64,000 bases of DNA from Candidatus Woesebacteria bacterium (GCA_020061305.1 JAGUYM010000014.1:49372-113371), one strand, 5' to 3'; shown: positions 1 through 57,511, numbered from the stretch's first letter. The notes: generated by a model from the letters alone, not told the origin. Translations and numbers: made by a program.

Positions 1-1106
1 GGAGTACATTTACATTCCCTCTTAAGATCACCTAAATATCCACAAGGACAAGGATTGGCAGCGGCAATTAGCATAAAACTAGCAGGGAAATTAACACTTC
101 CTGCGATTCTTGTAATTGATACTTTTCTATCTTCCAAAGGTTGCCTCAAAGCTTCAAGTGTGCCTCTTGAGAACTCAGGGAATTCATCCAAAAACAAAAC
201 TCCATTATGTGCAAGTGAAATTTCCCCTGGATGTGGGTTAGTCCCCCCACCAATTAATCCAATTAAACTGGTTGTGTGGTGAGCTGTTCTAAACGGTCTA
301 GTCCTGACCAACCCTTCTCCCGCAGGTATAAGTCCTGACACAGAATAAATTTTAGTAACTTCCAATGCCTCTTCTTCATTTAATGGCGGTAAAATTCCTG
401 CTGTTGCACGAGCCAACATTGTTTTACCAGCTCCAGGGGTTCCAACAAGAAAGATGTTGTGTCCACCTGCTGCAGCTATTGTCATTGCCCTTTTTGCAGA
501 TTCCTGTCCAATTATCTCAGCAAAATCAAACTCAACAACTTCGTGATCAGTGTATCGTGAACTGTGAATTGTGTGTTTTAATTTTTCAATCTTTTTAATC
601 CCATTTAAATGTGCAATTAATTCTGAGAGAGATTTAACAGGATAAACATCAATTCCAGACAAAACTGAGGCCTCATTGGCAGATTCACCGGGAACAAAAA
701 CACTTTTAATTCCTTTTTGTTTAGCAGCCAAACCTAAAAGAAAAACTCCCTTTGTGTGTCTTAAATTTCCATCAAGAGAAAGTTCACCATAAAAAAATGA
801 TTTCTCGATGGGTAACTTAACTAGCCCCATTGAAGCTAAAATTCCAATTGCAATTGGGAGATCATACAAAGAACCTTCTTTGGGAATATCAGCCGGAGCA
901 AGATTAACTACAATTTTTTGATTTGGAAATTCTATGTCAGAATTTAGAATTGCAGTTTTTACTCTTTCTTTTGCTTCCTCAATCGATTTATTGGGTAGGC
1001 CAATTATATTAAATCCAGGGAAACCTTTACTGAAAACATTTACCTCAACTTCTATAAGATTAGGCTCTAAACCAAAATGACTTGCAGAAAGAATTTTGGA
1101 TAACAC
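1..1106 (-). CDS. comM: Mg-chelatase-like AAA+ protein ComM/YifB, C-terminally truncated by the window edge
   Basis: Manual translation of the minus strand from a GTG at 1106 gives [25 protein letters not shown]...GFNIIGLP, a Walker A GTPGAGKT, and the conserved LFLDEFPEF and C-x-C-G zinc motifs. It is absent from the ORF track only because it runs off position 1. Confidence 0.8.
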
Positions 1107-1259
1107 TTTAAAAAAGTATGATACAAATAGATTTTAATTACAATTCTTAAAAGTTCCTAATGCACCAGGAACTAGGGACCTTTCGTGACTAAAATATTAA
1201 GAAAAGCAAGTTTGTACAAGCAAAATATATAGACTAGTGGTTGTATGATGCTTTAAAGG

Positions 1260-1413
1260 ATCGTCTTCTCGAAAGGAATTTATAAATTATGTAAGAATTG
1301 CATTTAAAAGTGCAAAAGAAACTGAATATTGGCTAAAGTTGTTTAAAGAATCAATAGAAATTACTAAAATTTTAAACTCAAGCACCCTTACATTAAAGAG
1401 TAAAATATAGTAA
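1260..1413 (+). pseudogene. C-terminal remnant of a four-helix-bundle (Avd-like / 23S-IVS protein family) gene
   Basis: One frame translates to ...GSSSRKEFINYVRIAFKSAKETEYWLKLFKESIEITKILN. This matches the family C-terminal pattern (KEFinfl.IA.gS..ElEyqL..a) but there is no N-terminal half and no start codon. Confidence 0.4.
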
Positions 1414-1422
1414 AATTATTTT

Positions 1423-3132
1423 ATGCCAAAGAAAATTGCTCTAATTCTTCTTTCTTCACTCTTATTTATTAATTCGCTCATCATGCCTTTTGCAGTTGTC
1501 AAGGCAGCAGACGAAGAACCTTCTACTTGGTACAATCAAGGTTTTACTGATTGGTATGCAAAAGTATACGGAGATGAGTCCCCACCATCAGAAATTTTTG
1601 GAGAGCGCTACACAGCAGCCCAAGTTCAATGGATTATATATTCACTTTTTGCATTTCCGATAAATTTTCTAGGAAGTAAAATGCAAACAGTCACAGCTTG
1701 TTTATACAGTGTATCAAACCCAATTATAAATATAAATGATCTGTCGTGTGCACAAGACATTGCTTCGCTGCTAACGGATGCATTTAAGTTGATGAACATG
1801 TCTGGAATTATAACCGTTGGACAAGGCCCTACATCTTTCACCGAAGCTATTGTCTACGACTTTCAAAACAGACAATTATCTGGAATAAAATATACACAAA
1901 ACATAGTATCAAGATTTGGTCTAGTATCAGTTGCGAAAGCACAAGGTTTTGGGTATGGCGCAGTTGACGGATTACAAAAATACTGGCAGGGCTTTCGAGA
2001 TATGGCATATGCCTTATCCGTATTGGTCGTAATTGTTTTTTCCTTCATGATTATGTTCAGAGTTAAATTGTCACCACAACTAGTTATTTCCGTCCAATCT
2101 GCTTTACCAAAAATTGTTGGGGCCTTAGTGTTAGCCACCTTTTCGTATGCAATTGCAGGTTTTGTGATAGATTTTTCATACGTGGTCGGTGGATTGTTTG
2201 CATCGTTGATGTCACTTGCTGGATTTGTCAGCACAAACGGACAACAAGGAACAGCATTCCAAATTGCTTTCAACCAAATAATGCCAATTCAAGGAACCCA
2301 AGCTACTGGTGGATTTTATATCTTATTTTGGATGTTTGGATACACATTAGCATTTTTCCTTACGGCAGTTGTGGCGTTACTATCAACAGTTGTTGGGTTG
2401 TCAGTTTATGGCTTTGTTGTAGGTCTAGTTATGGTTTTGTTGTCTGTATGGATACTAATACTCATGGTTTGGTATATGATTAAAGTGCCTTGGGTTTTAC
2501 TTAAAAATTTAGTTAGTTTGTTTGTATCGATAGTCGTAGCTCCAGTTCAAATTGTTGCTGGGGCGCTTATTCCTTCAATTGGTTTTAGTGTCTGGATTAG
2601 AAAGATAATTGCAGAAGCATTAGTTTTTCCATTAACAGGTCTTTTTATGTTTTTAGCTGGTGCAACACTGCAAGCATCAATGGGAGCAAGTGGAGGTCAA
2701 ATGTTACAAGGGCTTGCTTCTATAATAGGAATACAAGTACCGCAAACAAGCTTATGGGCCCCTCCAATTTTGGGTTCAAGTGCAGATATGGCAGGGATAA
2801 TTTGGCTATCTGTAAGTTTTGTTTTCATTACAATGATACCTAAGGCAGTTGATATCATGAAGATGCTTGTCATGGGTGCTAAATTTGACTATGGTAGTGC
2901 AATAGGTGAAGCAGCTGGTGCATTTGGTATATTACCAACAGCGCAAAAGGCTGTTCAAGGTACATTTAGTGATATCGGACAAACTTGGGGGACTCAACAG
3001 ACTGTTCCATTTATAAAAAGTTTGTTTCAAAGAAGAGATCGTTATGGAATGTCAAGTGTAGATTATGATGAAAGGTTCAGACAACTTAACCCAGATCTTC
3101 AAGCTTCGGCTGGACCAAGAAACAAAAAATAG
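1423..3132 (+). CDS. polytopic membrane protein with cleavable signal peptide, first gene of the T4SS-like locus; candidate VirB6/TrbL-like channel component by context only
   Basis: 569 aa. The N-terminus is MPKKIALILLSSLLFINSLIMPFAVVKAADEE (signal peptide plus AxA site), followed by more than 10 hydrophobic helices, many glycine-rich. Confidence 0.5.
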   Translation: MPKKIALILLSSLLFINSLIMPFAVVKAADEEPSTWYNQGFTDWYAKVYGDESPPSEIFGERYTAAQVQWIIYSLFAFPINFLGSKMQTVTACLYSVSNPIININDLSCAQDIASLLTDAFKLMNMSGIITVGQGPTSFTEAIVYDFQNRQLSGIKYTQNIVSRFGLVSVAKAQGFGYGAVDGLQKYWQGFRDMAYALSVLVVIVFSFMIMFRVKLSPQLVISVQSALPKIVGALVLATFSYAIAGFVIDFSYVVGGLFASLMSLAGFVSTNGQQGTAFQIAFNQIMPIQGTQATGGFYILFWMFGYTLAFFLTAVVALLSTVVGLSVYGFVVGLVMVLLSVWILILMVWYMIKVPWVLLKNLVSLFVSIVVAPVQIVAGALIPSIGFSVWIRKIIAEALVFPLTGLFMFLAGATLQASMGASGGQMLQGLASIIGIQVPQTSLWAPPILGSSADMAGIIWLSVSFVFITMIPKAVDIMKMLVMGAKFDYGSAIGEAAGAFGILPTAQKAVQGTFSDIGQTWGTQQTVPFIKSLFQRRDRYGMSSVDYDERFRQLNPDLQASAGPRNKK

Positions 3133-3155
3133 CGAATACCACTCATCCTTTATCC

Positions 3156-4736
3156 CTAGACAACTCCTCTCTTTGACAACTGTCTATAAACACCCATCCA
3201 TGACATATCATTGGCAAAATTAATGTTATACCATTTTTCAACTACTTCTTTGATCCATTTCACTGACTCTTTACTAAGATAAGCATTCACCTCTCCTTTG
3301 CTAGTTGGAATTTTTCTCATCAAGGTGTCAAATAATCCATTCACCACAATATTGTCCCACCCTTGCATTGCTGCCTCAGTTGAATTTTCCACTATTGACC
3401 CAACCATCCCAATGACAAATTCATTTCGTAAATGTAAAACCTCTTCTGGATCAGAAGTATCAGATGGAGCTATCCACCCTTCAATCGCGTCTGATGTTAA
3501 ATCTTTGGGTGACCATGTTGTTTGTAAGCACATAGATTTAAAGGTCAATATTCGAGGAACCATAATTCCTAACCATCCAGCATAGTCGCCAGGTTTAATT
3601 GCGTCGAAATTCATTTTGTTAAAGTCAATTGTTTCATAATTATTGTCTTGGTCGATAGCGCTTCTTGTTCGCATACCTCGAATTCGTGTCAATGGATCAC
3701 CAATCTCAGCCAAATATGCGGGGTGCATTCTAGGAATATCTAAAAACAACATTTTATTAAATTCCCTAGGTTTTCCATCATTCCCAATCAACATCTCCCC
3801 CGCCTTATTCGGGTCCGGCAATTGAATTTTTTCTTGTATTTGCGCACTCCTAAAATAAGATGATCCAAATCCTTTTATCCTTTTAATTGTGATCATGGGG
3901 CCTCTATCTCTGGCAGCATTTAAACGACCTTCCCTGTATTTTTGAAAATAAATAGCCTCAGCCAATGGGTCTGATCCTTGTAGATCAGTATTCCAAACAG
4001 CTGTTTCGAGTGTTGCTTTAGCTATACGATAAGCAAGCTGCAATGACTTTTTGGCTTCCTTATTTCTTCCCAACCTATCTTCTAGAATTTTCATAATTGC
4101 TTCCATCTCACCCTGCTCAATGTCTTTACTACTCAATCTAACTGTTCTTCCGTTAATTTCCACTCCCTCAATATGTGCAGCTTGCAATAAATCAAAAGCT
4201 TTTGAAACATTAAGACCGGGTAATTCTTTTAAAATTGTAAAATCGACACCTTCTAGTGTCCATTTTTTCGATTCAGCTTGTTGGAAAGACTGTAACAAAA
4301 ACGGTGCTGCATCCTTTGCGCTTCCAGGTATCGCGGAAGCTACCGCATAACAATGTTGGAGTCTTAGTCTTGCAACAGCTTGTCGTTTGACCAGTGGGGC
4401 ACAATTTTCATTAGAAAGTAATTCGTTTAACACCCTCATTGTTCCCTCATTCGTAGTAGAATATAATCCAGGAGTTGGTACTATCTGGTTGTCATTTGCC
4501 TCAATTTTTTCAACCAACTTTATGATTAAATTGCGTTGCTCATCTTCTGATCTTGGTAATTTTATTGATTCATTTGCTTCCGCAATTTTCTCAGATGATT
4601 CTGCAATTCTCGACAGATAATCTTCAATCACGGGCTTCCTAGGAACAGGCGCGGATTCACCTCTTTGAGCTTTCTTTCTTAATTCGCTAATTCCCCACTG
4701 TTTGCTAGCTATGATTACAGTTTCACCTTCTGCCAT
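3156..4736 (-). CDS. hypothetical soluble protein (526 aa) in the accessory locus
   Basis: Long ORF with no nucleotide-binding or relaxase motif recognised. A GTAC-heptamer module lies in its upstream region (4765-4818). Confidence 0.55.
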   Translation of the reverse strand: MAEGETVIIASKQWGISELRKKAQRGESAPVPRKPVIEDYLSRIAESSEKIAEANESIKLPRSEDEQRNLIIKLVEKIEANDNQIVPTPGLYSTTNEGTMRVLNELLSNENCAPLVKRQAVARLRLQHCYAVASAIPGSAKDAAPFLLQSFQQAESKKWTLEGVDFTILKELPGLNVSKAFDLLQAAHIEGVEINGRTVRLSSKDIEQGEMEAIMKILEDRLGRNKEAKKSLQLAYRIAKATLETAVWNTDLQGSDPLAEAIYFQKYREGRLNAARDRGPMITIKRIKGFGSSYFRSAQIQEKIQLPDPNKAGEMLIGNDGKPREFNKMLFLDIPRMHPAYLAEIGDPLTRIRGMRTRSAIDQDNNYETIDFNKMNFDAIKPGDYAGWLGIMVPRILTFKSMCLQTTWSPKDLTSDAIEGWIAPSDTSDPEEVLHLRNEFVIGMVGSIVENSTEAAMQGWDNIVVNGLFDTLMRKIPTSKGEVNAYLSKESVKWIKEVVEKWYNINFANDMSWMGVYRQLSKRGVV

Positions 4737-4764: not shown

Positions 4765-4818
4765 TTATTCCACTTTGTGAAAAGAGGCAGTACAGAGTAC
4801 ACAGTACTAAGTACAAAG
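4765..4818. repeat. dispersed promoter-proximal module copy A: TTATTCCACTTTGTGAAAAG followed by a GTAC-heptamer array
   Basis: Copy A is near-identical to copies at 5338-5384 and 6210-6282. All three sit 20-60 nt upstream of minus-strand gene starts. Confidence 0.7.
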
Positions 4819-5337
4819 AAAGAACAAAAAGAAGAAAACTTCGTAGAAATAGCTAATGAAATTAGTATTAAGTCAATTTGTAGAAAAAACAACGAGTAAG
4901 CAAGACAGGCAACGTCTATTAATTTTTAGAAAGGTTTTTTGTAACAAAATAATATACTCCCAAGAAGAAGGCTATTGACAGTATTGCCCAAAAATAAAGT
5001 GTGTTCATTTTTTAATTTTCTTTACAATAAAGTATACCATAATCAGTAAAATCGCACTTGCAAAACTAGCAATTGTGTTAAACCTTATAATATCATTAAA
5101 TTCAATCATTTTTTATTTCCCTGTTCAATAATTATAACACCAGCACTCAAAAACAGACCGCTGAATAGTGTTCCCTAAAATAACGAGAATAAAATATCTT
5201 TTGGATTTCGAATATTTCCCAACAGAATACTTATTACGCCTGAAGCAAACCACGCAACTCCGATGTTGGATAAAAATTCAGCAATCAACTGAAGTTTTTG
5301 TGATGACTTATCCATCATATTAAAATTGTAGCATAAT

Positions 5338-5384
5338 TTATTCCACTTTGTGAAAAAGGACAGTATAGAGTACATAGTACATAA
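5338..5384. repeat. dispersed promoter-proximal module copy B
   Basis: Sequence TTATTCCACTTTGTGAAAAAGGACAGTATAGAGTACATAGTACATAAG. The first 20 nt are almost identical to copy A. Confidence 0.7.
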
Positions 5385-5481: not shown

Positions 5482-5808
5482 TTAAGAGTACGATAAAAAT
5501 CTAATATCTAATTTACTATCTAATGCTTCTGCAAGTTTTTGAAGGAAATTTACAGTTGGACTTATATTCCCTTTTTCTAATCTAGAAATTGCAGATTGAG
5601 TTGTACCAAGTTTTTTTGCAAGTTCCTTTTGGGAAAGATCTTTTTTTCTTCTGATATCAATCATTGCCTGAATCATTGCAAATTCTGGCTGTTGTCTGTC
5701 CCACTCGGCCTTAAACTCTGGATCTTTTAGCTGTTTGTTTAAAAAAACATTAAAATCTAGATGATTTCTCTTTTCTGGTGGAATATTTAAAACTTTTTTG
5801 TTTGTCAT
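5482..5808 (-). CDS. higA: XRE-family HTH antitoxin (HigA-like)
   Basis: The HTH is QKELAKKLGTTQSAISRLEKGNISPTVNFLQKLAEAL. It lies immediately downstream of a Gp49/HigB-family toxin gene, in the toxin-first order typical of higBA. Confidence 0.75.
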   Translation of the reverse strand: MTNKKVLNIPPEKRNHLDFNVFLNKQLKDPEFKAEWDRQQPEFAMIQAMIDIRRKKDLSQKELAKKLGTTQSAISRLEKGNISPTVNFLQKLAEALDSKLDIRFLSYS

Positions 5809-5820
5809 ATACCGTATATG

Positions 5821-6183
5821 CTATATTATACTGTTCATTCTGTCAATCGCTATTTTTAGTTCTTTGGTTGGAGTTTTTTGAGTTTTCTTCTTAAAGATGT
5901 GGAGAATGTAATATTCGTTATTAAAGATTGTGTAAAAAGCTCTGATATTTAATTTACTTTTGATTCGTAGTTCGTATAAATTGCTCTGCAATTTTTTGAT
6001 TTGTGGGGGTTTTAAAAACGGACCGTTGTTTTGAAGGAGCGAGAAATAACTAAATACTTTTGTTGAAATTTCGTTATCTTGATCAGTGAGAAAATCGTTA
6101 ACAGGATAATCCCCTCGTTTAGTCTGATAAAATTTAACAACCCACGTTTTCTGAATTGCAATAGAGCTGTCATTGGTTGACAT
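5821..6183 (-). CDS. higB: HigB/Gp49-family (RelE-superfamily) addiction-module toxin
   Basis: The C-terminus, LYELRIKSKLNIRAFYTIFNNEYYILHIFKKKTQKTPTKELKIAIDRMNS, matches the Gp49 signature (lyELRi...yRi.Yf...i.lLhgFkKKtqktP..ei..A). The start is placed at the internal ATG (6183) because the longer ORF runs through the GTAC repeat array. Confidence 0.75.
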   Translation of the reverse strand: MSTNDSSIAIQKTWVVKFYQTKRGDYPVNDFLTDQDNEISTKVFSYFSLLQNNGPFLKPPQIKKLQSNLYELRIKSKLNIRAFYTIFNNEYYILHIFKKKTQKTPTKELKIAIDRMNSII

Positions 6184-6209
6184 AATATAAATATATACCA
6201 AAACTATAT

Positions 6210-6282
6210 TTTGTGAAAATGTTGGTGTAGTTGCACCATGAACAGTACAGAGTACACAGTACTTAGTACAAAGAAAGTACTG
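6210..6282. repeat. dispersed promoter-proximal module copy C (TTTGTGAAAA + CAGTACAGAGTACACAGTACTTAGTACAAAG)
   Basis: Shares the GTAC array of copy A almost base for base and lies directly upstream of higB. Confidence 0.7.
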
Positions 6283-6316: not shown

Positions 6317-6382
6317 ATAGTACGATAAAGTAGTACCTAGTACAAAGTACGCAGTACAGAGTACAAAGTACGCAGTACAGAG
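6317..6382. repeat. GTAC-heptamer array D (AGTACNA units, about 9 copies) in the divergent higB / 6401 intergenic region
   Basis: Sequence CATAGTACGATAAAGTAGTACCTAGTACAAAGTACGCAGTACAGAGTACAAAGTACGCAGTACAGAG. Confidence 0.7.
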
Positions 6383-6400
6383 AATAGACAAACGCAAAAC

Positions 6401-6780
6401 ATGGTTAATAGCTATAAAGATTTGATTGTTTTTCAGAAATCTAAAACTCTAACTATTGACGTAATCAAGTATTTTAAGAAAAACAAAACAGACAGATCAA
6501 ATGATTTTTTACTTAACCAAGTTTTTAGATCTGTAAGTTCAGTTGGAGCTAATTTAGCTGAAGGTTTTGGAAGAAATTACAGTCAAAATTTTAAGCAATT
6601 TGTTGGAATTGCCAGAGGTTCATCTTTCGAGACTGAATATTGCTTGAAATGTTATTAGAATTAAACGATTTTGACTCAAAAATAATTAAGGAATTTATAG
6701 AAAAAAATATAGAAATAAATAAAATGTTAACAGGATTAATGAAAAATATGAAAGGAGAATCGACTAAGTACTAAGTACTC
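6401..6780 (+). pseudogene. frameshifted four-helix-bundle protein (Avd-like / 23S rRNA intervening-sequence protein family, PF05635-like)
   Basis: Frame 1 gives ...NQVFRSVSSVGANLAEGFGRNYSQNFKQFVGIARGSSFETEYCLKCY*. The expected continuation, LEMLLELNDFDSKIIKEFIEKNIEINKMLTGLMKNMKG, is in the -1/+2 frame from about 6648. This is a single-nucleotide indel or sequencing error. Confidence 0.55.
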
Positions 6781-6794
6781 TGTACTATGTACTG
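6764..6794. repeat. GTAC-heptamer array E immediately upstream of the 6807 gene
   Basis: Sequence CTAAGTACTAAGTACTCTGTACTATGTACTG, in the same orientation relative to the downstream gene as in copies A-C and as upstream of dnaA. Confidence 0.7.
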
Positions 6795-6806
6795 CGTCTT
6801 CGGCGT

Positions 6807-7808
6807 ATGGAACAACATCCAATACCACAGCAGATAAGCTCATATCAATTTAAATTGGTGGGGGACATGACTTTAAAACAATTTTTTCAAGTTGCAGGAG
6901 GCGCTTTGATTGGTTTATTGTTTTATTCAACCAACCTACATCCAGTTATTAAATGGCCAATAATTCTTCTTTCAACTGGTATTGGTGCCGCTATGGCCTT
7001 TTTACCGTTTCAAGAAAGACCTTTAGAAAAATGGATAATAGCATTTTTTAGAAGTATCTACTCTCCCACGCTTTTTACATGGCAAAAAACCGAGAAGCCC
7101 CCTGTCTTTTTTACTGAAACTGCGACCGCCCCAGAAATAACTAATGTGGGCTCACTTAATCAAAAATCAGCCCTTTCTCCTCTGGAGTTGGCCGAACAGA
7201 CCTTTTTAGGTAAAATTACCAGCCTTTGGGGGACTCAACAACCAATAAACAATGGTCAACAGACAACAGTCCAAAGTCAACAGTCGCAAGTCATAAGTCC
7301 ACAGTCAGCAGTCAATAGTCCACAGTCAGTAGTCAATAGTCAACCAGCAGTAAGTGTTCAGGTTCCCTCCCAAATCCCAACTATAATTACTAAATCTGCT
7401 CCGAAACTTGTCGTTGAGGAAACTTTGCCACAAGTCCACAGTCCACAGTCCACAGTCCACAGTCTTGATGCAGTAAATATTCAGCAAAAAACTATCACTT
7501 CCAATGAAGCTGAATTTTCCCCTGATGCAGCTCCCCCATACCCACCAACCATTCCTAACACCATTGCAGGACAAGTAATGGATTCGCAAAAAAAGATCAT
7601 TGAAGGAGCCATTATGGAGATAAAAGACGGAACAGGTAGGCCTGTTAGGGCCTTAAAAAGCAACAAAGCGGGTCATTTCATAATTGTTACTCCACTCGCA
7701 AATGGTAAATATGAAATAATTACTGAAAAGGACGGATACACATTTGATCCAGTTTCATTTGAAGCTAAAGGGGAGCTAATTAAACCAATAGCTATCCGTG
7801 CTAAATAG
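6807..7808 (+). CDS. 2-TM membrane protein with PrgI/VirB3-like N-terminus, a Q/S/P/V-rich heptad-repeat linker and a C-terminal beta-rich domain
   Basis: The N-terminus has two hydrophobic helices (FFQVAGGALIGLLFYS.. and ILLSTGIGAAMAFLPF) followed by ERPLEKWIIAFF, and the gene lies directly upstream of VirB4, as PrgI/VirB3-family proteins do. The middle is encoded by CAGTCAA and CAGTCCA heptamer repeats. The C-terminus is GRPVRALKSNKAGHFIIVTPLANGKYEIITEKDGYTFDPVSF. Confidence 0.45.
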   Translation: MEQHPIPQQISSYQFKLVGDMTLKQFFQVAGGALIGLLFYSTNLHPVIKWPIILLSTGIGAAMAFLPFQERPLEKWIIAFFRSIYSPTLFTWQKTEKPPVFFTETATAPEITNVGSLNQKSALSPLELAEQTFLGKITSLWGTQQPINNGQQTTVQSQQSQVISPQSAVNSPQSVVNSQPAVSVQVPSQIPTIITKSAPKLVVEETLPQVHSPQSTVHSLDAVNIQQKTITSNEAEFSPDAAPPYPPTIPNTIAGQVMDSQKKIIEGAIMEIKDGTGRPVRALKSNKAGHFIIVTPLANGKYEIITEKDGYTFDPVSFEAKGELIKPIAIRAK

Positions 7809-10464: not shown

Positions 10465-10484
10465 CTTCACCTGAATTATGAATT

Positions 10485-13217
10485 ATGAATAAAACACTTG
10501 ATTTAAAAGCATTAGTTGCCATACAAGAGGCGCTTGAGCGTTTTTATCCAAGAGAATTAGGGCTTGAAGGTAGCGTTGAGTTTAAAAAATGGGGAGAATG
10601 GCCAAGCAAAGAAGTTTTTTGGGAACAACTTAAAACATATCCTGAATTTAAAAATATTAAAACTCAAAAAGAAGCTTCAGGTTTATTACAAAAGTTAATC
10701 GATGAGAAAACAAAAGGAGCAGAAGCTCCAGGGCAACCTGATTCAAATTTACCACAAAATAGAGAGGCGAATGAAGAATTAAGAAAGAAAAGTGAAGAAT
10801 TGCACACAGAAACACGGGAAGGCTCAAAACAAGCTGTTGAGACAATGCAAAAGAGGCAACAGGAAATGTATGAAGAGGCACAAAAGCTTAAAAAACAAGC
10901 AGAGGAATTAAAAAATAATGAACAACTAACCAAAGACCTTACAGGTAAAAAAATATATGCCAAAATTGAAGTAGAGGATACACCAAGCCTAGACGAAGAC
11001 AAACAACAAAAACTTGAACGCTACAAAGAACTTTCAAAAAATAAACCAGAAACTGCCAAAGAAGAACTGGCCAAAGAACTTGAAGTATCAATTGAAAAAC
11101 AATTTGCAAAAGAAGATTTAACCAAAGAAGAAATAAAATCAATTGCAAGGGAAACTGCAAGTGAAACCATAGAAACTTTATCCAAAATTGATTCTCCTGA
11201 TTACGTTCCTACAACTTATCAAACAGCAATACTTACTGCAGTTGCCGTTGATGATAAAGTTGTACCTAAGGTTGCCATATCAAAATCTGCAACAGAAATT
11301 GTAAAAAATTCTGCGGGTCATGTTGCAGTTTTTAAAATTCAGCCCGAACTTTTAACTAGAGGAATAATAGAAACTGCATTTGGAAAGGATTTTACCAATT
11401 TTGTTCTTGGTGTTGACCCTTCAAAAGTTGAGGTTACACTAGTTGAAACAATTCCCCAAAATTTACCAAGAGAAGAATTGGTTAAGTATAAAGAAGTTAA
11501 TCTTCAAAATATTCGCGAATCTCACACAAACATCTTAGAGTGGAATTCCTCTGTATTAGAAAAGGCTTCATCAGTAGGTAAAGGATATGCAGATAGATAT
11601 ATGTCTTCAGGAATTGCTAATTTTATAACAAGAAGAATTGAGGCGCTTCCTGTAAATTCTGTTGTTAAAAAAGTAGTTACCACGCCTGAAATGCAGGCTA
11701 TGTTTTTTGCAAAATTTGGAGTAGGTAGTCCTGTGGTTTGGCAATATGCAAATCCGACTTTAATGAAGCTTTTTGGCCAAAATCAATTAGCTGGCGCCGC
11801 CTTCAGCACCGTAGGAAGAATTACTGGAAAACCAATTGTAACTGCAGTTACAGGAGAAGTTGCAGGTCAGGTTGCTGGCAAAGTTGCCACGCAAGCCGCA
11901 GGTAAAGCAACGGGCGCAGGTCTTGGTGCAACGATTGGTGCAATCACTGGCTTATCGGGTGGGCCACTTGCAATTGTAACGGCAGCAGTTGGCTATGTAA
12001 TAGGTGAGGTTTTTGGTAAGGTAATTTCAAAACTTAAAGTTTGGTGGACTAAAAATAAAGATAAAATTGCGCCGATTTTGGGAGTTGGGGTAGGGTTATC
12101 CTTTGCAAGATTTGGGTTTGGACCGGCGATTTTAGGTGGTGCTGGGACTTATTTACTTTTTGGTGGTACTGCGACGGCCTTACTTTTTGGCCCAATGAGA
12201 TTTTTTGCAATTTTAGGAAGAAACATTGGAATTACAATTGCAACTCCTGTAATAGTTACCCTTTTGGTCCTCCCCCCGCTCGTCGCCTTCATTATGCTTG
12301 TCATTAACAACAGTGCCTATGTTGTACCACCAAGCCCGCTCAGTTTTAATCGTGGCGGAGTGATAACTTCTCCTTATATTGATATAACCAAAACTGCAAC
12401 CCCCCCGGGTCCGTTTGAAAATTCTGATTTACCCTTAACTGTAACATACACCATAACAATAAAGGCCAAAAAAGGACCGCTTACTAACATAAAAATTGAT
12501 TATGCATGTAGGGTAGTTAAATCTAATTCATCAACTGTTTGCCCCGAACCAAACGGAACAATCCCTACAACAACTAGCGGAATTTCACCCTCTGCCCCTT
12601 TTGTTTTTTCATATTCTCAAACTTATGATCCCCTAAATTTTGAGGACTCTTTTGTTACTGATACAGTTACTATAACCGCAGACGAACCCTCAGCAAAAAA
12701 CATTCAAGCCGCAGCAGCGGCAACAATAAAAATAGGTGAACCACCAGAAGAATGTCCAACAGAAGAATTGTGGCCTACAAGTAATGGCGTTATTACACAA
12801 GGTGCTTATACAAACGGCTCACATAAAGGGACAGAATCAATTGACATTGGTGTTAGCAGTACTAATGTTTTTACAACACATTCAGGTGTTGTGGTTTTTT
12901 CCGGTTTTGATTCATGTTATGGTAACGAAATTAAAATTAAATCTTCTTGTGGTGGAAAAGAGTTTATAAGTAGATATTCACACCTTGAAGCTCGAAGTGT
13001 TACAAATGGGGCTTCTGTTTCAATGGGGCAAGTTATTGGTAGAAGTGGAAATACTGGGACATGCACCACAGGACCACATGTTCATTATGAATTTAGATTC
13101 TGGCCAGACGGAAAGCCAAGTTGGCCAAACAACCCTCCATTCATGATGAGACCTTATATTCCAAGAGATGTTCCCAGAGGATGTGAAAATTCTATAAGTT
13201 GTGGTGTATCATTTTAG
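10485..13217 (+). CDS. T4SS-associated cell-wall hydrolase: K/E-rich coiled-coil N-terminus, glycine-zipper TM segments, C-terminal M23 (LytM-type) metallopeptidase
   Basis: 910 aa. The C-terminus is GSHKGTESIDIGV...YSHLEAR...GRSGNTGTCTTGPHVHYEFR (M23 HxxxD and HxH motifs). The middle is a G/A-rich run (GAGLGATIGAITGLSGGPLAIVTAAVGYVIG..), and the N-terminal 230 aa is K/E/Q-rich. Confidence 0.7.
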   Translation: MNKTLDLKALVAIQEALERFYPRELGLEGSVEFKKWGEWPSKEVFWEQLKTYPEFKNIKTQKEASGLLQKLIDEKTKGAEAPGQPDSNLPQNREANEELRKKSEELHTETREGSKQAVETMQKRQQEMYEEAQKLKKQAEELKNNEQLTKDLTGKKIYAKIEVEDTPSLDEDKQQKLERYKELSKNKPETAKEELAKELEVSIEKQFAKEDLTKEEIKSIARETASETIETLSKIDSPDYVPTTYQTAILTAVAVDDKVVPKVAISKSATEIVKNSAGHVAVFKIQPELLTRGIIETAFGKDFTNFVLGVDPSKVEVTLVETIPQNLPREELVKYKEVNLQNIRESHTNILEWNSSVLEKASSVGKGYADRYMSSGIANFITRRIEALPVNSVVKKVVTTPEMQAMFFAKFGVGSPVVWQYANPTLMKLFGQNQLAGAAFSTVGRITGKPIVTAVTGEVAGQVAGKVATQAAGKATGAGLGATIGAITGLSGGPLAIVTAAVGYVIGEVFGKVISKLKVWWTKNKDKIAPILGVGVGLSFARFGFGPAILGGAGTYLLFGGTATALLFGPMRFFAILGRNIGITIATPVIVTLLVLPPLVAFIMLVINNSAYVVPPSPLSFNRGGVITSPYIDITKTATPPGPFENSDLPLTVTYTITIKAKKGPLTNIKIDYACRVVKSNSSTVCPEPNGTIPTTTSGISPSAPFVFSYSQTYDPLNFEDSFVTDTVTITADEPSAKNIQAAAAATIKIGEPPEECPTEELWPTSNGVITQGAYTNGSHKGTESIDIGVSSTNVFTTHSGVVVFSGFDSCYGNEIKIKSSCGGKEFISRYSHLEARSVTNGASVSMGQVIGRSGNTGTCTTGPHVHYEFRFWPDGKPSWPNNPPFMMRPYIPRDVPRGCENSISCGVSF

Positions 13218-15791: not shown

Positions 15792-15962
15792 GTTTTAATA
15801 TTTATCATATTTTAAATAGTAGTACTAGTAGTAGTATAGGGAGATAAGTGGAAAACTCTAAATTCTAAATTCTAAATTCTAAATTACTTCGGGATATAAA
15901 TAGGTGGATAAATATGTGGATAATTGTTTATAAATTGTTGATAAGTTGATAACCTTAAAAAG
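15792..15962. promoter_or_regulatory. putative oriC: DnaA-box cluster plus AT-rich heptamer tract between dnaA and dnaN
   Basis: There is a perfect TGTGGATAA at 15915-15923 and GGTGGATAA at 15903-15911. TTGATAAG and TTGATAAC half-boxes lie nearby, and a TTATCCCAA box lies at 15964-15972, just inside the 3' end of dnaA. An (AATTCTA)x4 tract at 15856-15886 and AGTACTAGTAGTAGTA at 15817-15838 are also present. Confidence 0.6.
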
Positions 15963-17504: not shown

Positions 17505-17650
17505 TGGCTACAAAAAGAACATATCAACCGCATAAAATCAAGAGAATTAGGAAATTTGGTTTTAGAAAGAGAAATTCTACTAAAAACGGAAAAAGGGTTC
17601 TAAAAAGAAGAAGGTTAAAAAAAAGAATTCGTCTATCGGCGACAAATTAA
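17505..17650 (+). CDS. rpmH: 50S ribosomal protein L34
   Basis: [45 protein letters not shown] matches L34, using the internal ATG of the 17381 ORF. Confidence 0.9.
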
Positions 17651-52582: not shown

Positions 52583-55411
52583 ATGAAATTAAACAAGGAG
52601 CAGATTTTGGCTGTCAAACATGATAAAGGGCCGCTTCTAATTATTGCTGGGGCGGGGACGGGAAAGACTGCAGTAATTATAGAGCGGATTAAACACTTAA
52701 TAGCTAGTGGAAAAGCAAAACCAGAAGAAATATTGGCCTTAACTTTTACAGAGAAGGCTGCAACTGAAATGGAAGTGAGAATAGATGAAGCAATGCCACT
52801 TTCATACGGTGATATTTGGATAACTACTTTTCATTCTTTTTGTGATTCTATTCTTCGAGAATCAGGATTACATATTGGACTTCCAACAAATTTCAAATTG
52901 ATGACTAAAGAAAAAAGTATAGATTTATTTAAGAGAAATTTATTTAATTTTTCATTAAATTATTTCAGACCACTGGGTAATCCAAATAAATTTATTGATA
53001 GTTTACTGACACATTTTTCAAGATTACAGGATGAAGCTATAACACCAAGTGAATATATTGCTTGGGTAAAAAAACTCAAAGCATCAAAAACTCAAAAACT
53101 CCAAGAAGATGAAAAATTAGAACAACAAAAGTGGCAGGAGTTAGCAACAGTTTACAATGAGTATAACGAGTTAAAACTTAAGGAAGCAAAATTTGATTTT
53201 GGTGATTTAATAATTAAAACAATAGAACTGTTTAAAAAGCGGCCGAATATATTAAAAAATTATCAAGAAAAGTTTAAATATATATTAGTTGATGAATTTC
53301 AGGATACAAACTATGCCCAAAATGAACTGGTTAATTTAATTGCTCAAAAAACCGGAAATATTACAGTTGTAGGCGATGATAACCAATCAATTTATCGCTG
53401 GCGTGGGGCCGCAATTTCAAATATTTTGCAGTTTATAAAAGTTTATCCGAAGGCAAAGATAATTACTCTAAACCAAAACTATAGAAGCACGCAAACCATA
53501 CTTGATAGCGCCTATAAACTTATTAAACATAATGATCCAGATACACTTGAGGCACGCCTCAAAATACCTAAAATACTAAATGCTAAAAATTCAAATGCTA
53601 AATATGAAATCAAGACAATTCAAACACAAACAGGGGATGAGGAGGCAGAAGAAGTAATAAAGTCAATAAATCAGTTAATCATTAAATATAATTACCAACC
53701 TAAAGATATCGCCATATTAGTTAGAGCAAATAATCATGCAGATAGTTTTATACGAGAATTGGAGAGGCAAGGAATACCACATCAATTTTTAGGTCCAAGT
53801 AAACTTTTGGAAAAAGAAGAAATAGTTGATTTAATTTCATACCTTAAAAGTTTGTATGACCCAGAAGACAATGAAAGTTTTTATAGACTAATTTCCTCTA
53901 AAAATTTGGATATCAATATTTCTGAAATCATAAAAATTACAAGTGAGGCAAAAAAGAAAAGTGTTTCTGTTTTTGAAATTTTTAATAATAACAACACACA
54001 TTCCAAATTAAAAGAAATTTTTACAAAACATTTACAAGAAATAAACACAAAAACTGCAGGCGAAATACTTTTTGAATATTTACAAGTGATGGGGATATAT
54101 GAGGAAATTATTAAAAATGAAGATGATATAAAAGCTAAGAATATATCAGCTTTTTTCCAAAAGGTAAAAGCTTTTGAGAATGACAATCCTCAAGCAAAAC
54201 TTCGTGAGGTTGTGGATTATATAAATTTACTAACAGAAGTTGGGGATTCGCCAACTGTTACCGATGGACTTTGGCAGGAGAACAATGCAGTAAATATTTT
54301 AACAATTCATTCTGCAAAGGGTTTGGAGTTTCCAGTTGTTTTTATGGTTAATCTGGTAACAGATAGATTTCCAAGTAGAAATAGGGGAGATGATCTGCCA
54401 ATTCCAGATGAGTTAATTAAGGAGGAACTTCCAATAGGTGATTTTCATATTCAGGAGGAGAGACGACTTTTTTATGTCGGTATAACAAGGGCTAAAGAAA
54501 GATTGTATTTTACAAGTGCGAGGATATACAACGATGGTAAAAGAGAAAAGAAAATATCACCTTTTGTTGCTGAAGCATTGGGTGAAACAGCCAACAGTCA
54601 ACAGCCAACAGTCAACAGCAAAAAACGAATTTATAATATTAACAACCAACACAGTTCACAATTCACAGTTCACAGTTCACGACAAAAAGTAAACTTTTTG
54701 TCTGTCTCCCAAATTGAAACATTTCAAACTTGTCCCTTACATTACAAATTAAAATATATTTATAATTTTCCAACACCATCTTCAGCCTCAACATCATTTG
54801 GCATAAGTATCCATGAAAGCTTAAAACAAATGCTAAATGCTAAAAATCTAAATGCTAAATTAACTCAAGATATTTTTGAAAATTGCTTTAGAGAAGAAGG
54901 GTATGAAAATAAAAAGCACAAAAAATTATTTTTTGACAAGGGTAAAGAATATTTATTAGGATTTTTAAAAAATTCATATGATCCAAAAACAAAAACAGTT
55001 GCATTGGAACAAAAGTTTAATATTAAATTATCAAAAGATTTAACAGTTGGTGGTGTGATAGATAGAATAGATGAAATTTCAAAAGGAAGGTTTGAAATAA
55101 TTGATTATAAAACGGGGGCTAATATCCCTTCGCAAAAAGATGTTGATAAAGATTTACAACTTTCTGTATATGCTTTGGCAGTATCAGAAATGTATAAAGT
55201 AAAACCAGAAAATATAAAACTTTCACTTTATTATCTAGATACACAGGAAAAGATTACGACCATAAGAACGGAAGAAGAGTTGCAAGAAATTAGGAATCAG
55301 ATACTAGAAATTAGAGATGAAATAGAAAACAGTGATTTTAAATGTAACAATTCCTACTTCTGTCAAAAAGGCTGCGAATTTAAAATGTTCTGTAAAAGTG
55401 AAGGTTTGTAG
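52583..55411 (+). CDS. UvrD/PcrA-type helicase fused to a C-terminal Cas4/AddB-like PD-(D/E)xK nuclease with Fe-S cysteines
   Basis: Helicase motifs are present (AGAGTGKT, DEFQDTN, motif VI VGITRAKE). The C-terminus has TCPLHYKLKY, VIDRIDEI...EIIDYKTG and CNNSYFCQKGCEFKMFC. It contains in-frame CAGYCAA and CAGTTCA heptamer repeats at 54589-54684. Confidence 0.8.
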   Translation: MKLNKEQILAVKHDKGPLLIIAGAGTGKTAVIIERIKHLIASGKAKPEEILALTFTEKAATEMEVRIDEAMPLSYGDIWITTFHSFCDSILRESGLHIGLPTNFKLMTKEKSIDLFKRNLFNFSLNYFRPLGNPNKFIDSLLTHFSRLQDEAITPSEYIAWVKKLKASKTQKLQEDEKLEQQKWQELATVYNEYNELKLKEAKFDFGDLIIKTIELFKKRPNILKNYQEKFKYILVDEFQDTNYAQNELVNLIAQKTGNITVVGDDNQSIYRWRGAAISNILQFIKVYPKAKIITLNQNYRSTQTILDSAYKLIKHNDPDTLEARLKIPKILNAKNSNAKYEIKTIQTQTGDEEAEEVIKSINQLIIKYNYQPKDIAILVRANNHADSFIRELERQGIPHQFLGPSKLLEKEEIVDLISYLKSLYDPEDNESFYRLISSKNLDINISEIIKITSEAKKKSVSVFEIFNNNNTHSKLKEIFTKHLQEINTKTAGEILFEYLQVMGIYEEIIKNEDDIKAKNISAFFQKVKAFENDNPQAKLREVVDYINLLTEVGDSPTVTDGLWQENNAVNILTIHSAKGLEFPVVFMVNLVTDRFPSRNRGDDLPIPDELIKEELPIGDFHIQEERRLFYVGITRAKERLYFTSARIYNDGKREKKISPFVAEALGETANSQQPTVNSKKRIYNINNQHSSQFTVHSSRQKVNFLSVSQIETFQTCPLHYKLKYIYNFPTPSSASTSFGISIHESLKQMLNAKNLNAKLTQDIFENCFREEGYENKKHKKLFFDKGKEYLLGFLKNSYDPKTKTVALEQKFNIKLSKDLTVGGVIDRIDEISKGRFEIIDYKTGANIPSQKDVDKDLQLSVYALAVSEMYKVKPENIKLSLYYLDTQEKITTIRTEEELQEIRNQILEIRDEIENSDFKCNNSYFCQKGCEFKMFCKSEGL

Positions 55412-55649
55412 CTTTACTTTGTTACAGATGTTGCATCTGTGATTGATTGCGTAAATTTTCTATTTCGAAGGTCTATCTCTTTGTATGCAAGATTTTGTAA
55501 AATGCTTCCTCTAGCCTTAAGTTTTAATCGCCCCCTTGGCTATTTTGGGATCTAAGCTTTCAGCTAAATCAACAACCAGCTTGCTCCAAAATCCAAATTT
55601 AGTTTTTGATTCAATTACCTTAACTTCCATGTTTGAATTCTATTACTAC

Positions 55650-56510
55650 TTAATGGTCAAATATTGGAAGTTTGTATCTGGTGTAACATCCAGGATAAAG
55701 AATTTCAGTACCACCAAATTTTTTTTTAAAGTGGCTAAATCCAAGCCAAGATTTATTAGGAAAACGATCGTCGTAAATTCCTTCCATGTCAAAAATTTTA
55801 CAACCCACCTTCTTACCCCATAGTATACCTTGATAGAGAAGTGAGTACTGAGAGAGAGAGGTGCGACCTTCTTTATTTGTAAATCCATACACATAATATG
55901 CGCCAAAATTCTTCTCTTTGTGTGAAGAGACTGTGAAAATCGCTCCCCCTATAATACTGCCAGAAACATTGTGCGACGTAAGGAAGATGGAGGTATTGTT
56001 TGGGAATGTTTTTTTTAAACTTAAAAGTCTTTCAAGGCTTGGTACATATCGCTTAAAATTTACAGATTTTCTCCACGTTTCTCTAAATACTTTAATTTTT
56101 TCTGGAGAATTGTAATTTTCAATTTTTAATCCCTCCCCTTTTCGAATACTGAATTTACAGTCTTTTGAAAAGTTTCGGAAAATGTCCCCTTCACTTTGAG
56201 TTAAGTCTATATGAATAGTTTTTGAGGGTAAAAATGGACTATTTGACAACTTAAACCCATAGTCCTTAATTTTTAATTCTTCACCCTTATTTAATTCTAA
56301 TGGTTCGATAATAATTTGAAACGGTTTATACTTTTTACTTAATATCTCTATATCCTTATATCTTATTTCTTTTGGTCTTTGAATTTTCAACACACTTCCA
56401 ATCAATGGCAGTTTTTTAATAAAATAGTTAGTGTTATTTATTCTTTCTACAATCCAACCCTGTTTTGTTAAAAATTTGGCATAGTTTATTGATTGACGAA
56501 GGTCTAACAT
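55650..56510 (-). CDS. FemAB-family (aminoacyl-tRNA-dependent peptidoglycan cross-bridge transferase-like) protein
   Basis: 286 aa with a GNAT-pair-like organisation. It is a paralogue of the adjacent gene, and Fem genes lie next to LCP and PG genes here. Confidence 0.5.
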   Translation of the reverse strand: MLDLRQSINYAKFLTKQGWIVERINNTNYFIKKLPLIGSVLKIQRPKEIRYKDIEILSKKYKPFQIIIEPLELNKGEELKIKDYGFKLSNSPFLPSKTIHIDLTQSEGDIFRNFSKDCKFSIRKGEGLKIENYNSPEKIKVFRETWRKSVNFKRYVPSLERLLSLKKTFPNNTSIFLTSHNVSGSIIGGAIFTVSSHKEKNFGAYYVYGFTNKEGRTSLSQYSLLYQGILWGKKVGCKIFDMEGIYDDRFPNKSWLGFSHFKKKFGGTEILYPGCYTRYKLPIFDH

Positions 56511-56584
56511 AAATTTCTAAAATTGGAAAATTGGGACCTATTTAGGTTAATAAATAATAAATTTCATTTTATAAATTAGGTAAA

Positions 56585-57511
56585 TTAGGCCAATTTGGCT
56601 TTGAATTTAAGTAGCATCCATCTTAATTTATCAACAAATATATACATATAATATAAAGGTTTGTTAATCATCAAGTCCCAACTACCAATAAATTCAACAA
56701 CCTTTGGATTATAACCTTCTTTAAACTTTGTAAAGCCCTTTCCTTCTTCCCTTCCCCAAAGATCGAATGTTTTTAGTTTTAATTTTTTTCCAAATTTAAT
56801 TGCTTCCCACATCATTAGATTGTTTGCCATAACGCCCTTGTACTTATCTGTTGATGCACCGTATGGGTAGTATAAAAATTCGTTGTGAGCAAATAGAATC
56901 CAAGTTGAGATTATCTCACCATTATATTTTGCAACTAACAGGTGAGCTATTTGACTTTTGACTTTTGACTTTTGACTTGGGCCGAGATACTTCCACATTA
57001 ACCTATGATACTTTTCAGTATGTGCGTAAAAGCCTTGCCTTTTTACTGTTTCGAAAGTTAATTTTAAGTATTCTTCAAAAGCTTTATCACTATTATCAAC
57101 TTCTACTTTAACTCCGTGCCTTTGAGCTAAACGAATATTATAACGAGTTTTACTTGAAAATGATTTAAGTAATTCTTCCTCAGATTTCCTCAGGTCAATC
57201 CAGAATGAGGTGGGAGTAAAAAGTGATTTACCCTTGATTAATCCATATTTTTTATACTGTTTAACAATTTTTTTATCCATCAAAACAAAAGGCTCAAGTT
57301 TGATAAAAATTGCATTATTCTGTTTACCTAGTCGAGCTATTTCCTGAACATTTTCTTTTGTTAGATTATTACCTCTAATCAAAGTTCCAATTTTATATTT
57401 TGTATAGGGAATTTTACTAAAAATAATGAGCCCTGTTTTTGAATTTATAACATCATTGCCCCATTCTTTCCTAAATTCTCCCCAAGCCACTGTTTGTAAC
57501 GGGTGTTTCAT
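56585..57511 (-). CDS. FemAB-family protein (paralogue)
   Basis: MKHPLQTVAWGEFRKEWG resembles the FemX N-terminus (QSWEWGEFK). It contains SQKSKVKSQ encoded by (AAAGTCA)x4. Confidence 0.5.
   Translation of the reverse strand: MKHPLQTVAWGEFRKEWGNDVINSKTGLIIFSKIPYTKYKIGTLIRGNNLTKENVQEIARLGKQNNAIFIKLEPFVLMDKKIVKQYKKYGLIKGKSLFTPTSFWIDLRKSEEELLKSFSSKTRYNIRLAQRHGVKVEVDNSDKAFEEYLKLTFETVKRQGFYAHTEKYHRLMWKYLGPSQKSKVKSQIAHLLVAKYNGEIISTWILFAHNEFLYYPYGASTDKYKGVMANNLMMWEAIKFGKKLKLKTFDLWGREEGKGFTKFKEGYNPKVVEFIGSWDLMINKPLYYMYIFVDKLRWMLLKFKAKLA

Follow-up and report, generated by a model that had tools for sequence, protein, structure and literature searches.

Heptanucleotide tandem repeat arrays in genes and intergenic regions of a Woesebacteria genome

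Tandem repeats with a unit of seven nucleotides have reportedly been known in cyanobacteria since 1990 and are said to have been recognised in 2007 as the dominant long microsatellite class in many prokaryotes. Here we describe such heptanucleotide (heptamer) arrays in a stretch of 64,000 nucleotides from Candidatus Woesebacteria bacterium (GCA_020061305.1 JAGUYM010000014.1:49372-113371; hereafter the window), where they lie both between genes and inside open reading frames (ORFs). The arrays are a member, in bacteria of the candidate phyla radiation (CPR), of the known heptanucleotide microsatellite class that comprises the cyanobacterial STRR elements (short, tandemly repeated and repetitive) and long simple sequence repeats (SSRs). 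The kind of repeat was already known, and what is new here is its occurrence in CPR bacteria; no description of heptanucleotide repeats in CPR/Patescibacteria was found in the papers searched.

Several described systems resemble these arrays. Cyanobacterial STRR sequences likewise consist of tandem 7-bp units at many dispersed loci with hairpins in intergenic spacers (PMC2670836). They reach dozens of units in cyanobacteria, whereas the window belongs to a CPR/Microgenomates host with a genome below 1 Mb, which places it outside STRR in the strict sense, a term for repeats of the units CCCCAGT, TTGGTCA and CAACAGT in (heterocystous) cyanobacteria, and its arrays have mostly 2-6 units (12 at the maximum); owing to a genome that is 89% coding, two thirds of them fall within housekeeping ORFs. 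The survey of long SSRs by Mrazek, Guo and Shah (2007), as far as it is summarised in PMC4679880 and PMC4692102, found heptanucleotides over-represented in sporadic taxa and the commonest long-SSR class in most genomes, and slippage was proposed as their origin; by the same summaries, units that are a multiple of three are the likeliest in coding sequence, whereas the window has 7-nt units in ORFs, and the survey predates CPR genomes. TAACTGA repeats of Beggiatoaceae, cyanobacteria and Bacteroidetes (MacGregor 2015, PMC4679880) share with the window a size of 2-6 copies, a position often just upstream of start codons without a canonical ribosome-binding site, an exclusively stop-free orientation within ORFs and 7-residue periodic peptides in unrelated proteins, and their reverse complement TCAGTTA resembles the cores ACAGTTA and AACAGTC found here; they have one dominant unit and are mostly intergenic, whereas the window has several unit families, mostly in essential genes. 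GGGAATC/GGGGAYT repeats of Xanthomonas and Nostoc (PMC4692102) have, as here, a conserved core, variable positions and, at one and the same site, variation in copy number and sequence between close relatives, but they are G-rich, quadruplex-forming and intergenic, in contrast to the AT-rich units without G-tracts in the window.

Census and lineage distribution of the arrays

A self-match scan of the window for periods of 4-24, with third-order Markov shuffles as the null, revealed 24 period-7 arrays compared with 0.3 in the shuffles, and there were 10 exact arrays with a length of two units and 3 nt or more, where 0.22 would be expected. Within this range of periods no enrichment was seen at any but 7 and its multiples 14 and 21, and Tandem Repeats Finder agreed with the excess at period 7. 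The lag-7 match rate dropped from 0.289 to 0.280 (background, 0.277) once 3.5% of the sequence was masked; the periodicity is restricted to discrete tracts. A dispersed word signal, of the uptake-signal or binding-site type, was rejected, given that outside the arrays the 5- to 7-mers contained in the units show no enrichment. Array density is about one per 2.7 kb in the window and 0.18-0.52 arrays per kb in relatives. Sixteen of the 24 arrays are located in ORFs of 11 genes (13 if the weak tracts in comM and at 43029 are counted) and the remaining eight in the non-coding 10.7% of the window, a threefold enrichment (p=0.003), showing that the phenomenon is not gene-specific. Every position listed in the first-pass annotation, which had been made from the sequence alone, holds an array or a weak array, the weak ones being comM 556-575, 43029-43056 and 45724-45753. 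The arrays and associated elements are as follows.

556-575, minus strand: ComM-like gene, weak array of 2.4 units (CACAATT CACAGTT CACGA) encoding HTIHSSR in an apparent inter-domain linker
4788-4822, plus strand: AGTACAN array between genes, upstream of the minus-strand gene 3156-4736 at a distance of 53 nt
5358-5383: degenerate array adjoining the 5338-5356 copy of a 19-nt flank
6243-6277, plus strand: second copy of the 35-nt AGTACAN element, upstream of a Gp49-like toxin gene (start 6186, minus strand)
6331-6378, plus strand: AGTACAN array, upstream arm of an S23p cassette
6401-6774, plus strand: frameshifted 23S_rRNA_IVP gene (S23p, four-helix-bundle, Avd-like) between the two arms
6763-6797, plus strand: inverted AGTAC array, the cassette's downstream arm; the PrgI-like gene follows about 10 nt further on
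7255-7343, plus strand: PrgI-like gene, about 12 CAGTCAA-type heptamers encoding QSQVISPQSAVNSPQSVVNS, in the linker that joins the PrgI domain (aa 5-84) to a C-terminal domain (aa 252-312)
7433-7464, plus strand: PrgI-like linker, (AGTCCAC) x4.6 encoding QVHSPQSTVHS
10472-10490, plus strand: (TGAATTA) x2.7, in a 20-nt spacer and across the start codon of an M23-peptidase gene
15853-15885, no strand: (AAATTCT) x4.7 in the spacer of the dnaA-dnaN origin region (oriC)
17054-17083, minus strand: DnaA, (AACAGTC) x4.3 encoding QSTVNSQQS in the domain II linker
17339-17366 and 17402-17422, no strand: two AGTACAA arrays directly upstream of the true dnaA start (ATG 17344, minus strand)
17466-17497, plus strand: (CAATTTA) x4.6, 9 nt upstream of rpmH
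19635-19665 and 19686-19710, plus strand: Wzy_C-like membrane protein, arrays of ATTAAGY/ATTATGT and ATTCATA in hydrophobic segments
20408-20436, plus strand: Wzy_C-like membrane protein, (GCTATTC) x4
20709-20742, plus strand: RNase HI (rnhA), AACAGTC/AAAAGTC encoding PSTVKSKKSTV
26393-26415, minus strand: ValS, perfect (TCAAAAG) x3.3 encoding QKSKVKS in the loop before the HIGH motif
27421-27465, minus strand: TsaD, AAGTCNN and AATTTCC arrays encoding SPKSKVISKNFQF in the loop after the HxxxH motif
28047-28078, minus strand: TsaE half of a Sua5-TsaE fusion, GACTACA/GACTGCC encoding DYRLQTADYRL
33155-33179, plus strand: nucleotidyltransferase, (GAATTAT) x3.6 encoding LRIMNYEL
43029-43056, minus strand: membrane glycosyltransferase-like gene, weak array with a 14-nt period, +2 aa compared with relatives
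45724-45753, minus strand: glycosyltransferase-like gene, degenerate AAATTCT/AAACTCT tract, a doubtful member
54586-54618 and 54650-54680, plus strand: helicase-nuclease, (AACAGYC) x4.7 and (CACAGTT) x4.4 encoding NSQQPTVNS and HSSQFTVHSS, in the linker between the UvrD_C and PD-(D/E)XK domains
54828-54844, plus strand: helicase-nuclease, variable nuclease-domain loop with (AAATGCT) x2.4
56950-56978, minus strand: FemAB-like gene, perfect (AAGTCAA) x4.1 encoding SQKSKVKSQ

The tract at 45724-45753, described in the first-pass annotation as an AATTCTA/AACTCTA array in a GT2 gene, is indeed present, but it is doubtful because its segment DRxxKFxTLxSKFG is conserved in relatives including an array-free genome, and it is probably not a true member of the set.

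Comparison with related genomes, including loci fully syntenic with the window, gave very different array numbers.

Window, within the 43 kb of synteny: about 16 arrays
L084 (from Hainich groundwater; TsaD identity 65%): 11 arrays in 21 kb
L001 (Amesbacteria): 5 arrays in 13 kb
L004: 7 arrays in 21 kb
L073 (Berkelbacteria): 4 arrays in 16 kb
L091 and L094 (one genome; ValS 76% identical): 8 arrays in 45 kb
L089 and L095 (CP129472.1-type genome; ValS 76% identical, same GC; 22 and 22.9 kb, fully syntenic with the window): 0 arrays in 45 kb

The array-making process operates in certain lineages, and a sister lineage has it switched off. Across genomes the same protein sites carry other units, as in the TsaD loop, the TsaE hairpin, the ValS loop (where other relatives have other arrays), the Wzy-like protein and the helicase-nuclease linker. 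Both linker arrays of the window helicase-nuclease are orthologous to arrays in L093 at 66% protein identity; one of the L093 arrays is well kept and the other decayed, while the window copies are 85-100% regular, which at this divergence implies recent homogenisation.

Change in steps of 21 nt was captured in one pair of related Woesebacteria sequences. L096/L097 and L098 are 99.99% identical, with 1 SNP in 8.9 kb, and their only indels are of 21 nt and 105 nt (5x21). The former (alignment columns 4013-4034) falls in a tract with GAAGTNN substructure (KSEVRGG|KSE), and the latter (columns 3067-3172) is a deletion that takes out the Walker A region of the helicase-nuclease. This pair supports the proposal of the first-pass annotation that a slippage-type process operates in 21-nt steps. 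Among helicase-nuclease alleles, P0221 and P0420 (98% identical) differ by a 15-aa insertion bearing an array (TVDRSPSTVD), and the linkers of P0221 and P0419 (97% identical) are wholly different, one being of the QPSTVNS...HSTQFTDH type. More generally, the alleles P0221/P0419/P0420 and P0166/P0415, 93-98% identical, have completely different linkers, one of which matches the type of a far more distant genome; these alignments suggest import or replacement of the whole linker.

No unit-number variants were found for the window organism, contigs of three other runs being 100% identical across six arrays (a small sampling of contigs, without reads), and the 90% protein clusters of nine window proteins contained no length variants. 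Two of these contigs, L081 and L082, break off exactly at the border of an array or right beside one (window 28045, 26410 and 17435), even though the arrays fall short of the 31-nt word used in assembly; these ends may reflect heterogeneity within the sample or an effect of low coverage. The odd ends of L083 were discarded as variants, being a palindromic assembly artefact.

Reading frame, strand and length of the coding arrays

A tandem 7-mer passes through all three frames every 21 nt and so yields a peptide with a period of seven residues. Arrays of the same unit, read in three frames, must encode the same peptide up to rotation, which accounts for the identical peptides in unrelated proteins. 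Stops limit which units can be read in this way: of 2344 heptamer necklaces, 1612 are free of them, and each of the main units AACAGTC, AAAAGTC, CACAGTT and GACTACA gains a stop when reverse-complemented, explaining the sense orientation of the arrays in ORFs. An array of at least three units persists in an ORF only if its sense-strand unit is stop-free in every phase. The stop-codon account of orientation given in the first-pass annotation therefore stands for these four main units, and the same reasoning has been published for TAACTGA repeats (PMC4679880). Its companion statement, that the AGT-type unit is always on the coding strand, fails for the TsaE array and the array at 43029, in both of which the AGTC-bearing strand is antisense; the rule is that the stop-free strand is sense, not that AGT lies on the sense strand. 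Orientation by replication direction was rejected on inspection, as arrays on the same side of the origin follow the gene strand both ways.

All coding arrays are in frame, and they are positioned in internal linkers, loops and membrane segments of proteins that are mostly essential housekeeping products (dnaA, valS, tsaD, tsaE and rnhA, and also the helicase). In RNase HI the array occupies the loop after the first helix, and in TsaE a hairpin that aligns to the EYND--GVLPL hairpin of Bacillus subtilis TsaE (5np9). The TsaE array had been taken for a duplication at the YRL motif of this protein, but the conserved motif of TsaE is HIDTWRM, which lies slightly further downstream, and the repeated YRL is not part of it. 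Amino-acid tandem repeats of Borgs (PMC9879509) similarly appear as genome-specific bursts that create new, often disordered, fast-evolving segments; their units in ORFs are divisible by three and nearly all unique per genome, whereas the unit here is of 7 nt and shared, and only the 7-aa protein period corresponds to three units.

The first-pass annotation regarded the arrays as insertions. This holds for a minority: compared with two array-free relatives, L095 and L096, the FemAB-like protein has a net gain of 8 aa; ValS has a net +3 aa relative to the consensus of about 40 relatives; the oriC spacer is about 20 nt longer than in L089 (L091 has a similar unit there in opposite orientation); and the TsaD loop is 7 aa longer than in the distant structure PDB 8iey, although of the same length as in L089. 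Most other arrays occupy segments of unchanged length. DnaA, TsaD, TsaE, RNase HI (within 1 aa), the Wzy-like protein and the nucleotidyltransferase have equal segment lengths in the window and in close relatives, including the array-free genome. The TsaE segment is equally long in L089, L091 and L084, that of RNase HI matches PDB 3u3g and orthologues, and that of DnaA has the same length as in 8 orthologues. In DnaA, the window has KQSTVNSQQS (CAGTCAA CAGTCAA TAGTCAA CAGTCAA) and L089 has KQSTVHTKQT (CAGTCCA CTGTTCA CACAAAA CAAACAG), identical in length, with the start in common and residual periodicity in L089. Orthologous segments of L089 resemble decayed arrays in DnaA (CAGTCCA CTGTTCA) and also in TsaD (PNSKVTSN). 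Orthologous segments without repeat structure, named in the first-pass annotation as evidence that would refute its reading, do exist in part: the helicase-nuclease linker measures 42.8 residues both in 9 orthologues whose 7-aa periodicity is clear and in 83 that lack it.

Intergenic arrays, S23p cassettes and neighbouring genes

Five genes (starts at 4736, about 5318, 6186 and 17344 on the minus strand and 6807 on the plus strand) have an AGTACAN array upstream, oriented alike with respect to each gene; inspection by eye of three of these upstream regions (4736, 6807 and 17344) revealed no Shine-Dalgarno motif. An ORF around 6244-6269 has its true start at 6186, which leaves the array upstream of the gene. 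Likewise, dnaA starts at ATG 17344 rather than at TTG 17360 of the longest ORF. The 35-nt tract CAGTACAGAGTACACAGTACTWAGTACAAAGAAAG is present at 4788-4822 and again at 6243-6277, the two elements being the same except for one W position, with an identical order of variant units, which would not be expected of independent slippage. A 19-nt flank, TTATTCCACTTTGTGAAAA, is likewise found at 4765-4783 and 5338-5356. Clearly, one or more of the intergenic array pairs is a copy. No RNA genes were detected by Rfam and tRNA scans in the array-rich intergenic regions; the hits in the window were a tRNA-Cys and a match to RF03531, a Clostridioides sRNA inside a helicase gene, at 57687-57786. This match is above the gathering threshold, lies in a UvrD-type helicase ORF, and most likely reflects conserved coding sequence rather than an RNA gene.

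Two intergenic arrays form the arms of a cassette (6331-6797) around the S23p gene, whose product matches PF05635 with E=4e-20, a family that includes Avd proteins of diversity-generating retroelements (DGRs). The arms are complementary at 87% over 30 nt (6763-6797 against 6349-6378) and are predicted to close a long stem (z=-4.2). All eight S23p copies examined, in seven genomes, have this heptamer-armed architecture, with arms of 30-44 nt; the seven other copies, in six related genomes, have arms of the AATTTGA/TCAAATT type.

L086: 142-568
L004: 376-889
L099: 1452-1930
L106: 1472-1885
L101: 569-1046 and about 1452-1930
L103/L105: 1453-1923

Cassettes occupy the VTT/Sua5 junction of L086 and the VanW/VTT junction of L106, neither of which contains one in the window; judged by these different intergenic positions, the cassettes appear mobile. 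In four or five genomes a cassette adjoins the PrgI-like gene of an operon resembling type IV secretion systems.

Window: cassette and PrgI-like neighbourhood at 6401-7808
L004: 430-1770
L099: 1046-1866
L101/L102: 610-1866, with one S23p cassette on either side of the PrgI-like gene

L101 also has at 2604-2743 (L102 likewise) a hairpin without an ORF, with AATTTAC/TTCAAAT arms, between TraC-like and VirB4-like genes (z=-3.0), which from its predicted fold looks like a miniature derivative of the cassette.

Intervening sequences (IVSs) in 23S rRNA of Coxiella, Leptospira and Xanthomonas (PMC4990558) also have an S23p ORF in the loop of a stem with inverted flanks, and in Coxiella 3-4 tandem GACAGAT heptamers, variable in number between strains, precede the S23p ORF; this is the only comparable report of a heptamer-flanked S23p ORF that was found. 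The cassettes described here differ in that they lie between protein-coding genes rather than in a 23S rRNA helix, from which RNase III excises the IVSs, and that both arms are heptamer arrays; that of the window has a toxin-antitoxin pair on one side and the PrgI-like gene on the other, and no rRNA is present in the window. The pair comprises a Gp49-like (RelE/HigB-type) toxin and an HTH_3 antitoxin (5482-6186, minus strand). About 40 window ORFs scanned with Pfam contained no reverse transcriptase or integrase, the Avd-like (PF05635) pseudogene being the only related hit, and the locus thus lacks the reverse-transcriptase domain of a DGR among these ORFs; no search for template and variable repeats was made. 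A cyanobacterial locus, L019, has (AACAGTT)n arrays between ordinary genes, and the link to S23p is therefore not general. The window unit AACAGTC is a rotation of CAACAGT, which is presumably the STRR3 of Mazel et al. (1990).

The window, part of a 235,213-bp contig from a groundwater bacterium, has a GC content of 32-37% and genes typical of CPR bacteria, namely a PrgI/VirB4-type secretion operon, M23 peptidases, a VanW-like protein, a Sua5-TsaE fusion, TsaD, a short ValS, DnaA, DnaN and two UvrD-type helicases. Its best DnaA match, 47% identical, is an Amesbacteria protein in a species-level genome collection, and the closest relatives of ValS and the helicase-nuclease (up to 76% identity) are from Woesebacteria or Microgenomates. 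Sua5/TsaC and TsaE are fused in one ORF (27827-28888) directly upstream of TsaD, an arrangement kept in L084, L085, L086, L089 and L091. The dnaA-dnaN spacer (15792-15962) is origin-like, with several TTATCCACA-type DnaA boxes, an AT-rich end and, at 15817-15836, a (TAG)n tract similar to a DnaA-trio element; the layout is kept in L089 and L091, and an extra perfect DnaA box lies at 17447-17455 upstream of dnaA. The gene rpmH (L34) at 17507-17650, upstream of rnpA, is shorter than the ORF length cut-off.

Possible origins of the arrays and their significance

On balance, we lean towards slippage in a 7-nt register, filtered by selection and accompanied by additional copying or a sequence preference. 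Out-of-register realignment of the strands would gain or lose whole units anywhere in the genome, thereby creating arrays and homogenising them. Arrays in ORFs survive solely on the strand where the unit is stop-free, at a net length that keeps the frame (three units, that is 21 nt or 7 aa), in tolerant linkers, surface loops and membrane segments, and with the segment staying near its ancestral length. The selection filter, the array sites, the lineage pattern and one 21-nt step are direct observations; from these we infer that the mechanism is slippage and that arrays are homogenised as units are lost and regained again and again. The recurrence of a few units at unrelated loci and in different genomes would require either a sequence preference of the process or the copying of ready-made arrays.

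Several findings weigh against this reading. Nothing in the data explains the 7-nt register, for which a polymerase footprint has been conjectured in the literature. Array lengths of 3.3-5.1 units are not multiples of 21 nt, and near-perfect arrays exist at unchanged protein length, so that slippage needs either repeated in-frame loss and regain or length-neutral conversion, neither of which was seen directly. Unit number does not vary in the window organism. Units are also shared beyond what local slippage alone predicts. Among 26 arrays, 14 pairs have an identical unit compared with 0.78 expected, and 19 of the 26 units contain AGT or ACT, compared with 22% of random 7-mers. For the 13 coding arrays, a filtered null was built by drawing stop-free, hydrophilic units from the window's own coding strand; it gave 0.1-0.8 identical-unit pairs against the six observed (P<=0.006), and this simulation ruled out the selection filter as the cause of the sharing. 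The unit families NSQQSTV, KSKVKSQ, HSSQFTV, DYRLQTT, NFQFPIS and KHKAYSI recur across proteins and genomes. Because common descent confounds a lag-7 scan of homologous proteins (conserved motifs give peaks at lags 6 and 8), the following are examples only: QSTVNS in four helicase-nuclease orthologues; NFQFPIS in helicase-nuclease orthologues, one ValS and the window TsaD; ISHMPYA/KHKAYSI in helicase-nuclease and ValS; and DYSLQTT in a helicase, compared with DYRLQTA in the window TsaE.

This sharing beyond chance and beyond the selection filter is also an argument for templated copying, a serious rival or complement to slippage to which we give distinctly less credence, in which ready-made heptamer tracts overwrite permissive sites, including loops of essential genes, and leave the length nearly or entirely as it was. 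This could come about through ectopic gene conversion between arrays, through single-stranded DNA that bears repeats and is incorporated at replication forks, or through an activity linked to the S23p cassette. The duplicated 35-nt element and the 19-nt flank (at 4765 and 5338) are in keeping with it, as are the length-neutral arrays in DnaA, TsaE, RNase HI and the helicase-nuclease linker, the whole linker swapped between P0221 and P0419, the unit families common across the clade, and the heptamer-armed cassettes, which seem to have moved, given the empty L086 and L106 sites. On the other hand, many locus-specific units suit the local protein (hydrophobic in the Wzy-like protein; GAATTAT in the nucleotidyltransferase), the ends of arrays merge into sequence that is common with the array-free relative, such as KQSTV in DnaA of the window and L089, and the ORFs scanned hold no reverse transcriptase or integrase. 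Furthermore, the families of coding arrays and cassette arms are uncoupled within a genome, with AGTAC arms and AACAGTC coding units in the window and AATTTGA arms and AACAGT-type coding units in L086, for which reason resident cassette arms were rejected as the source of the coding arrays. A more specific version, which we consider unlikely, would have a templated, length-neutral micro-conversion patch loops from a small clade-wide heptamer repertoire (AACAGTC, AAAAGTC, CACAGTT, GACTACA, AATTTCC and others), maybe in connection with the cassettes, and be off in the sister lineage.

It is similarly doubtful that the arrays are functional elements, with the intergenic and perhaps some coding arrays serving as binding sites or RNA structures in transcription, translation or transcript stability and being kept by selection for that role. 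Such roles, resembling those proposed for TAACTGA repeats (PMC4679880) and STRR hairpins (PMC2670836), would fit the uniformly oriented AGTAC arrays upstream of five genes with no Shine-Dalgarno motif in the three regions read, the (CAATTTA)n array upstream of rpmH that is kept in L091, and the stable stems predicted for inverted arrays. Units at the same site nevertheless differ between relatives, for instance upstream of dnaA, the sister genome manages without any arrays, any intergenic feature in an 89% coding genome is near a start codon, and the coding arrays are left unaccounted for.

Contingency loci, in which changes of unit number switch genes or surface proteins by phase variation, had been raised in the first-pass annotation and are very improbable here. 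As in Haemophilus, Neisseria and Moraxella, short repeats lie within genes and the unit is not a multiple of three, so that a change by one unit shifts the frame; some hosts are envelope-related (Wzy-like, FemAB-like, PrgI-like and glycosyltransferase-like), and two contigs of other runs end exactly at array borders. Unlike contingency loci, however, the window has no on/off frameshift states and no observed variation in unit number: most hosts are housekeeping genes, every array is in frame and sited in a linker rather than at a 5' end, three independent runs are identical across six arrays, and the protein clusters lack length variants.

Finally, an origin by chance from the low complexity or codon bias of an AT-rich genome, or by selection on the proteins for linkers with 7-residue repeats, is practically untenable, since the GC content of 34% and the near-noise tracts in comM and at 43029 and 45724 are outweighed by the 24 arrays against 0.3 with period 7 alone, the arrays in non-coding DNA, a periodicity at the nucleotide level through all three frames, the sharing of units above the null and a syntenic sister genome with a GC content of 34.4% and zero arrays; the shuffling controls and that array-free genome rule it out, as the first-pass annotation had argued.

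Genomes of 0.6-0.85 Mb, which contain few genes for replication and repair, densely spaced arrays and a sister genome that is syntenic yet free of them make the lineage an unusually clean test system, and a comparison of gene content between array-rich and array-free genomes could yield a short list of candidates for the machinery. The heptamer-armed S23p cassettes tie the repeats to the large uncharacterised family of Avd-like proteins. The arrays further show that a mutational process can repeatedly rewrite loops and linkers of essential proteins such as DnaA, ValS and TsaD at constant length, which matters for the alignment, phylogeny and structure prediction of CPR proteins.

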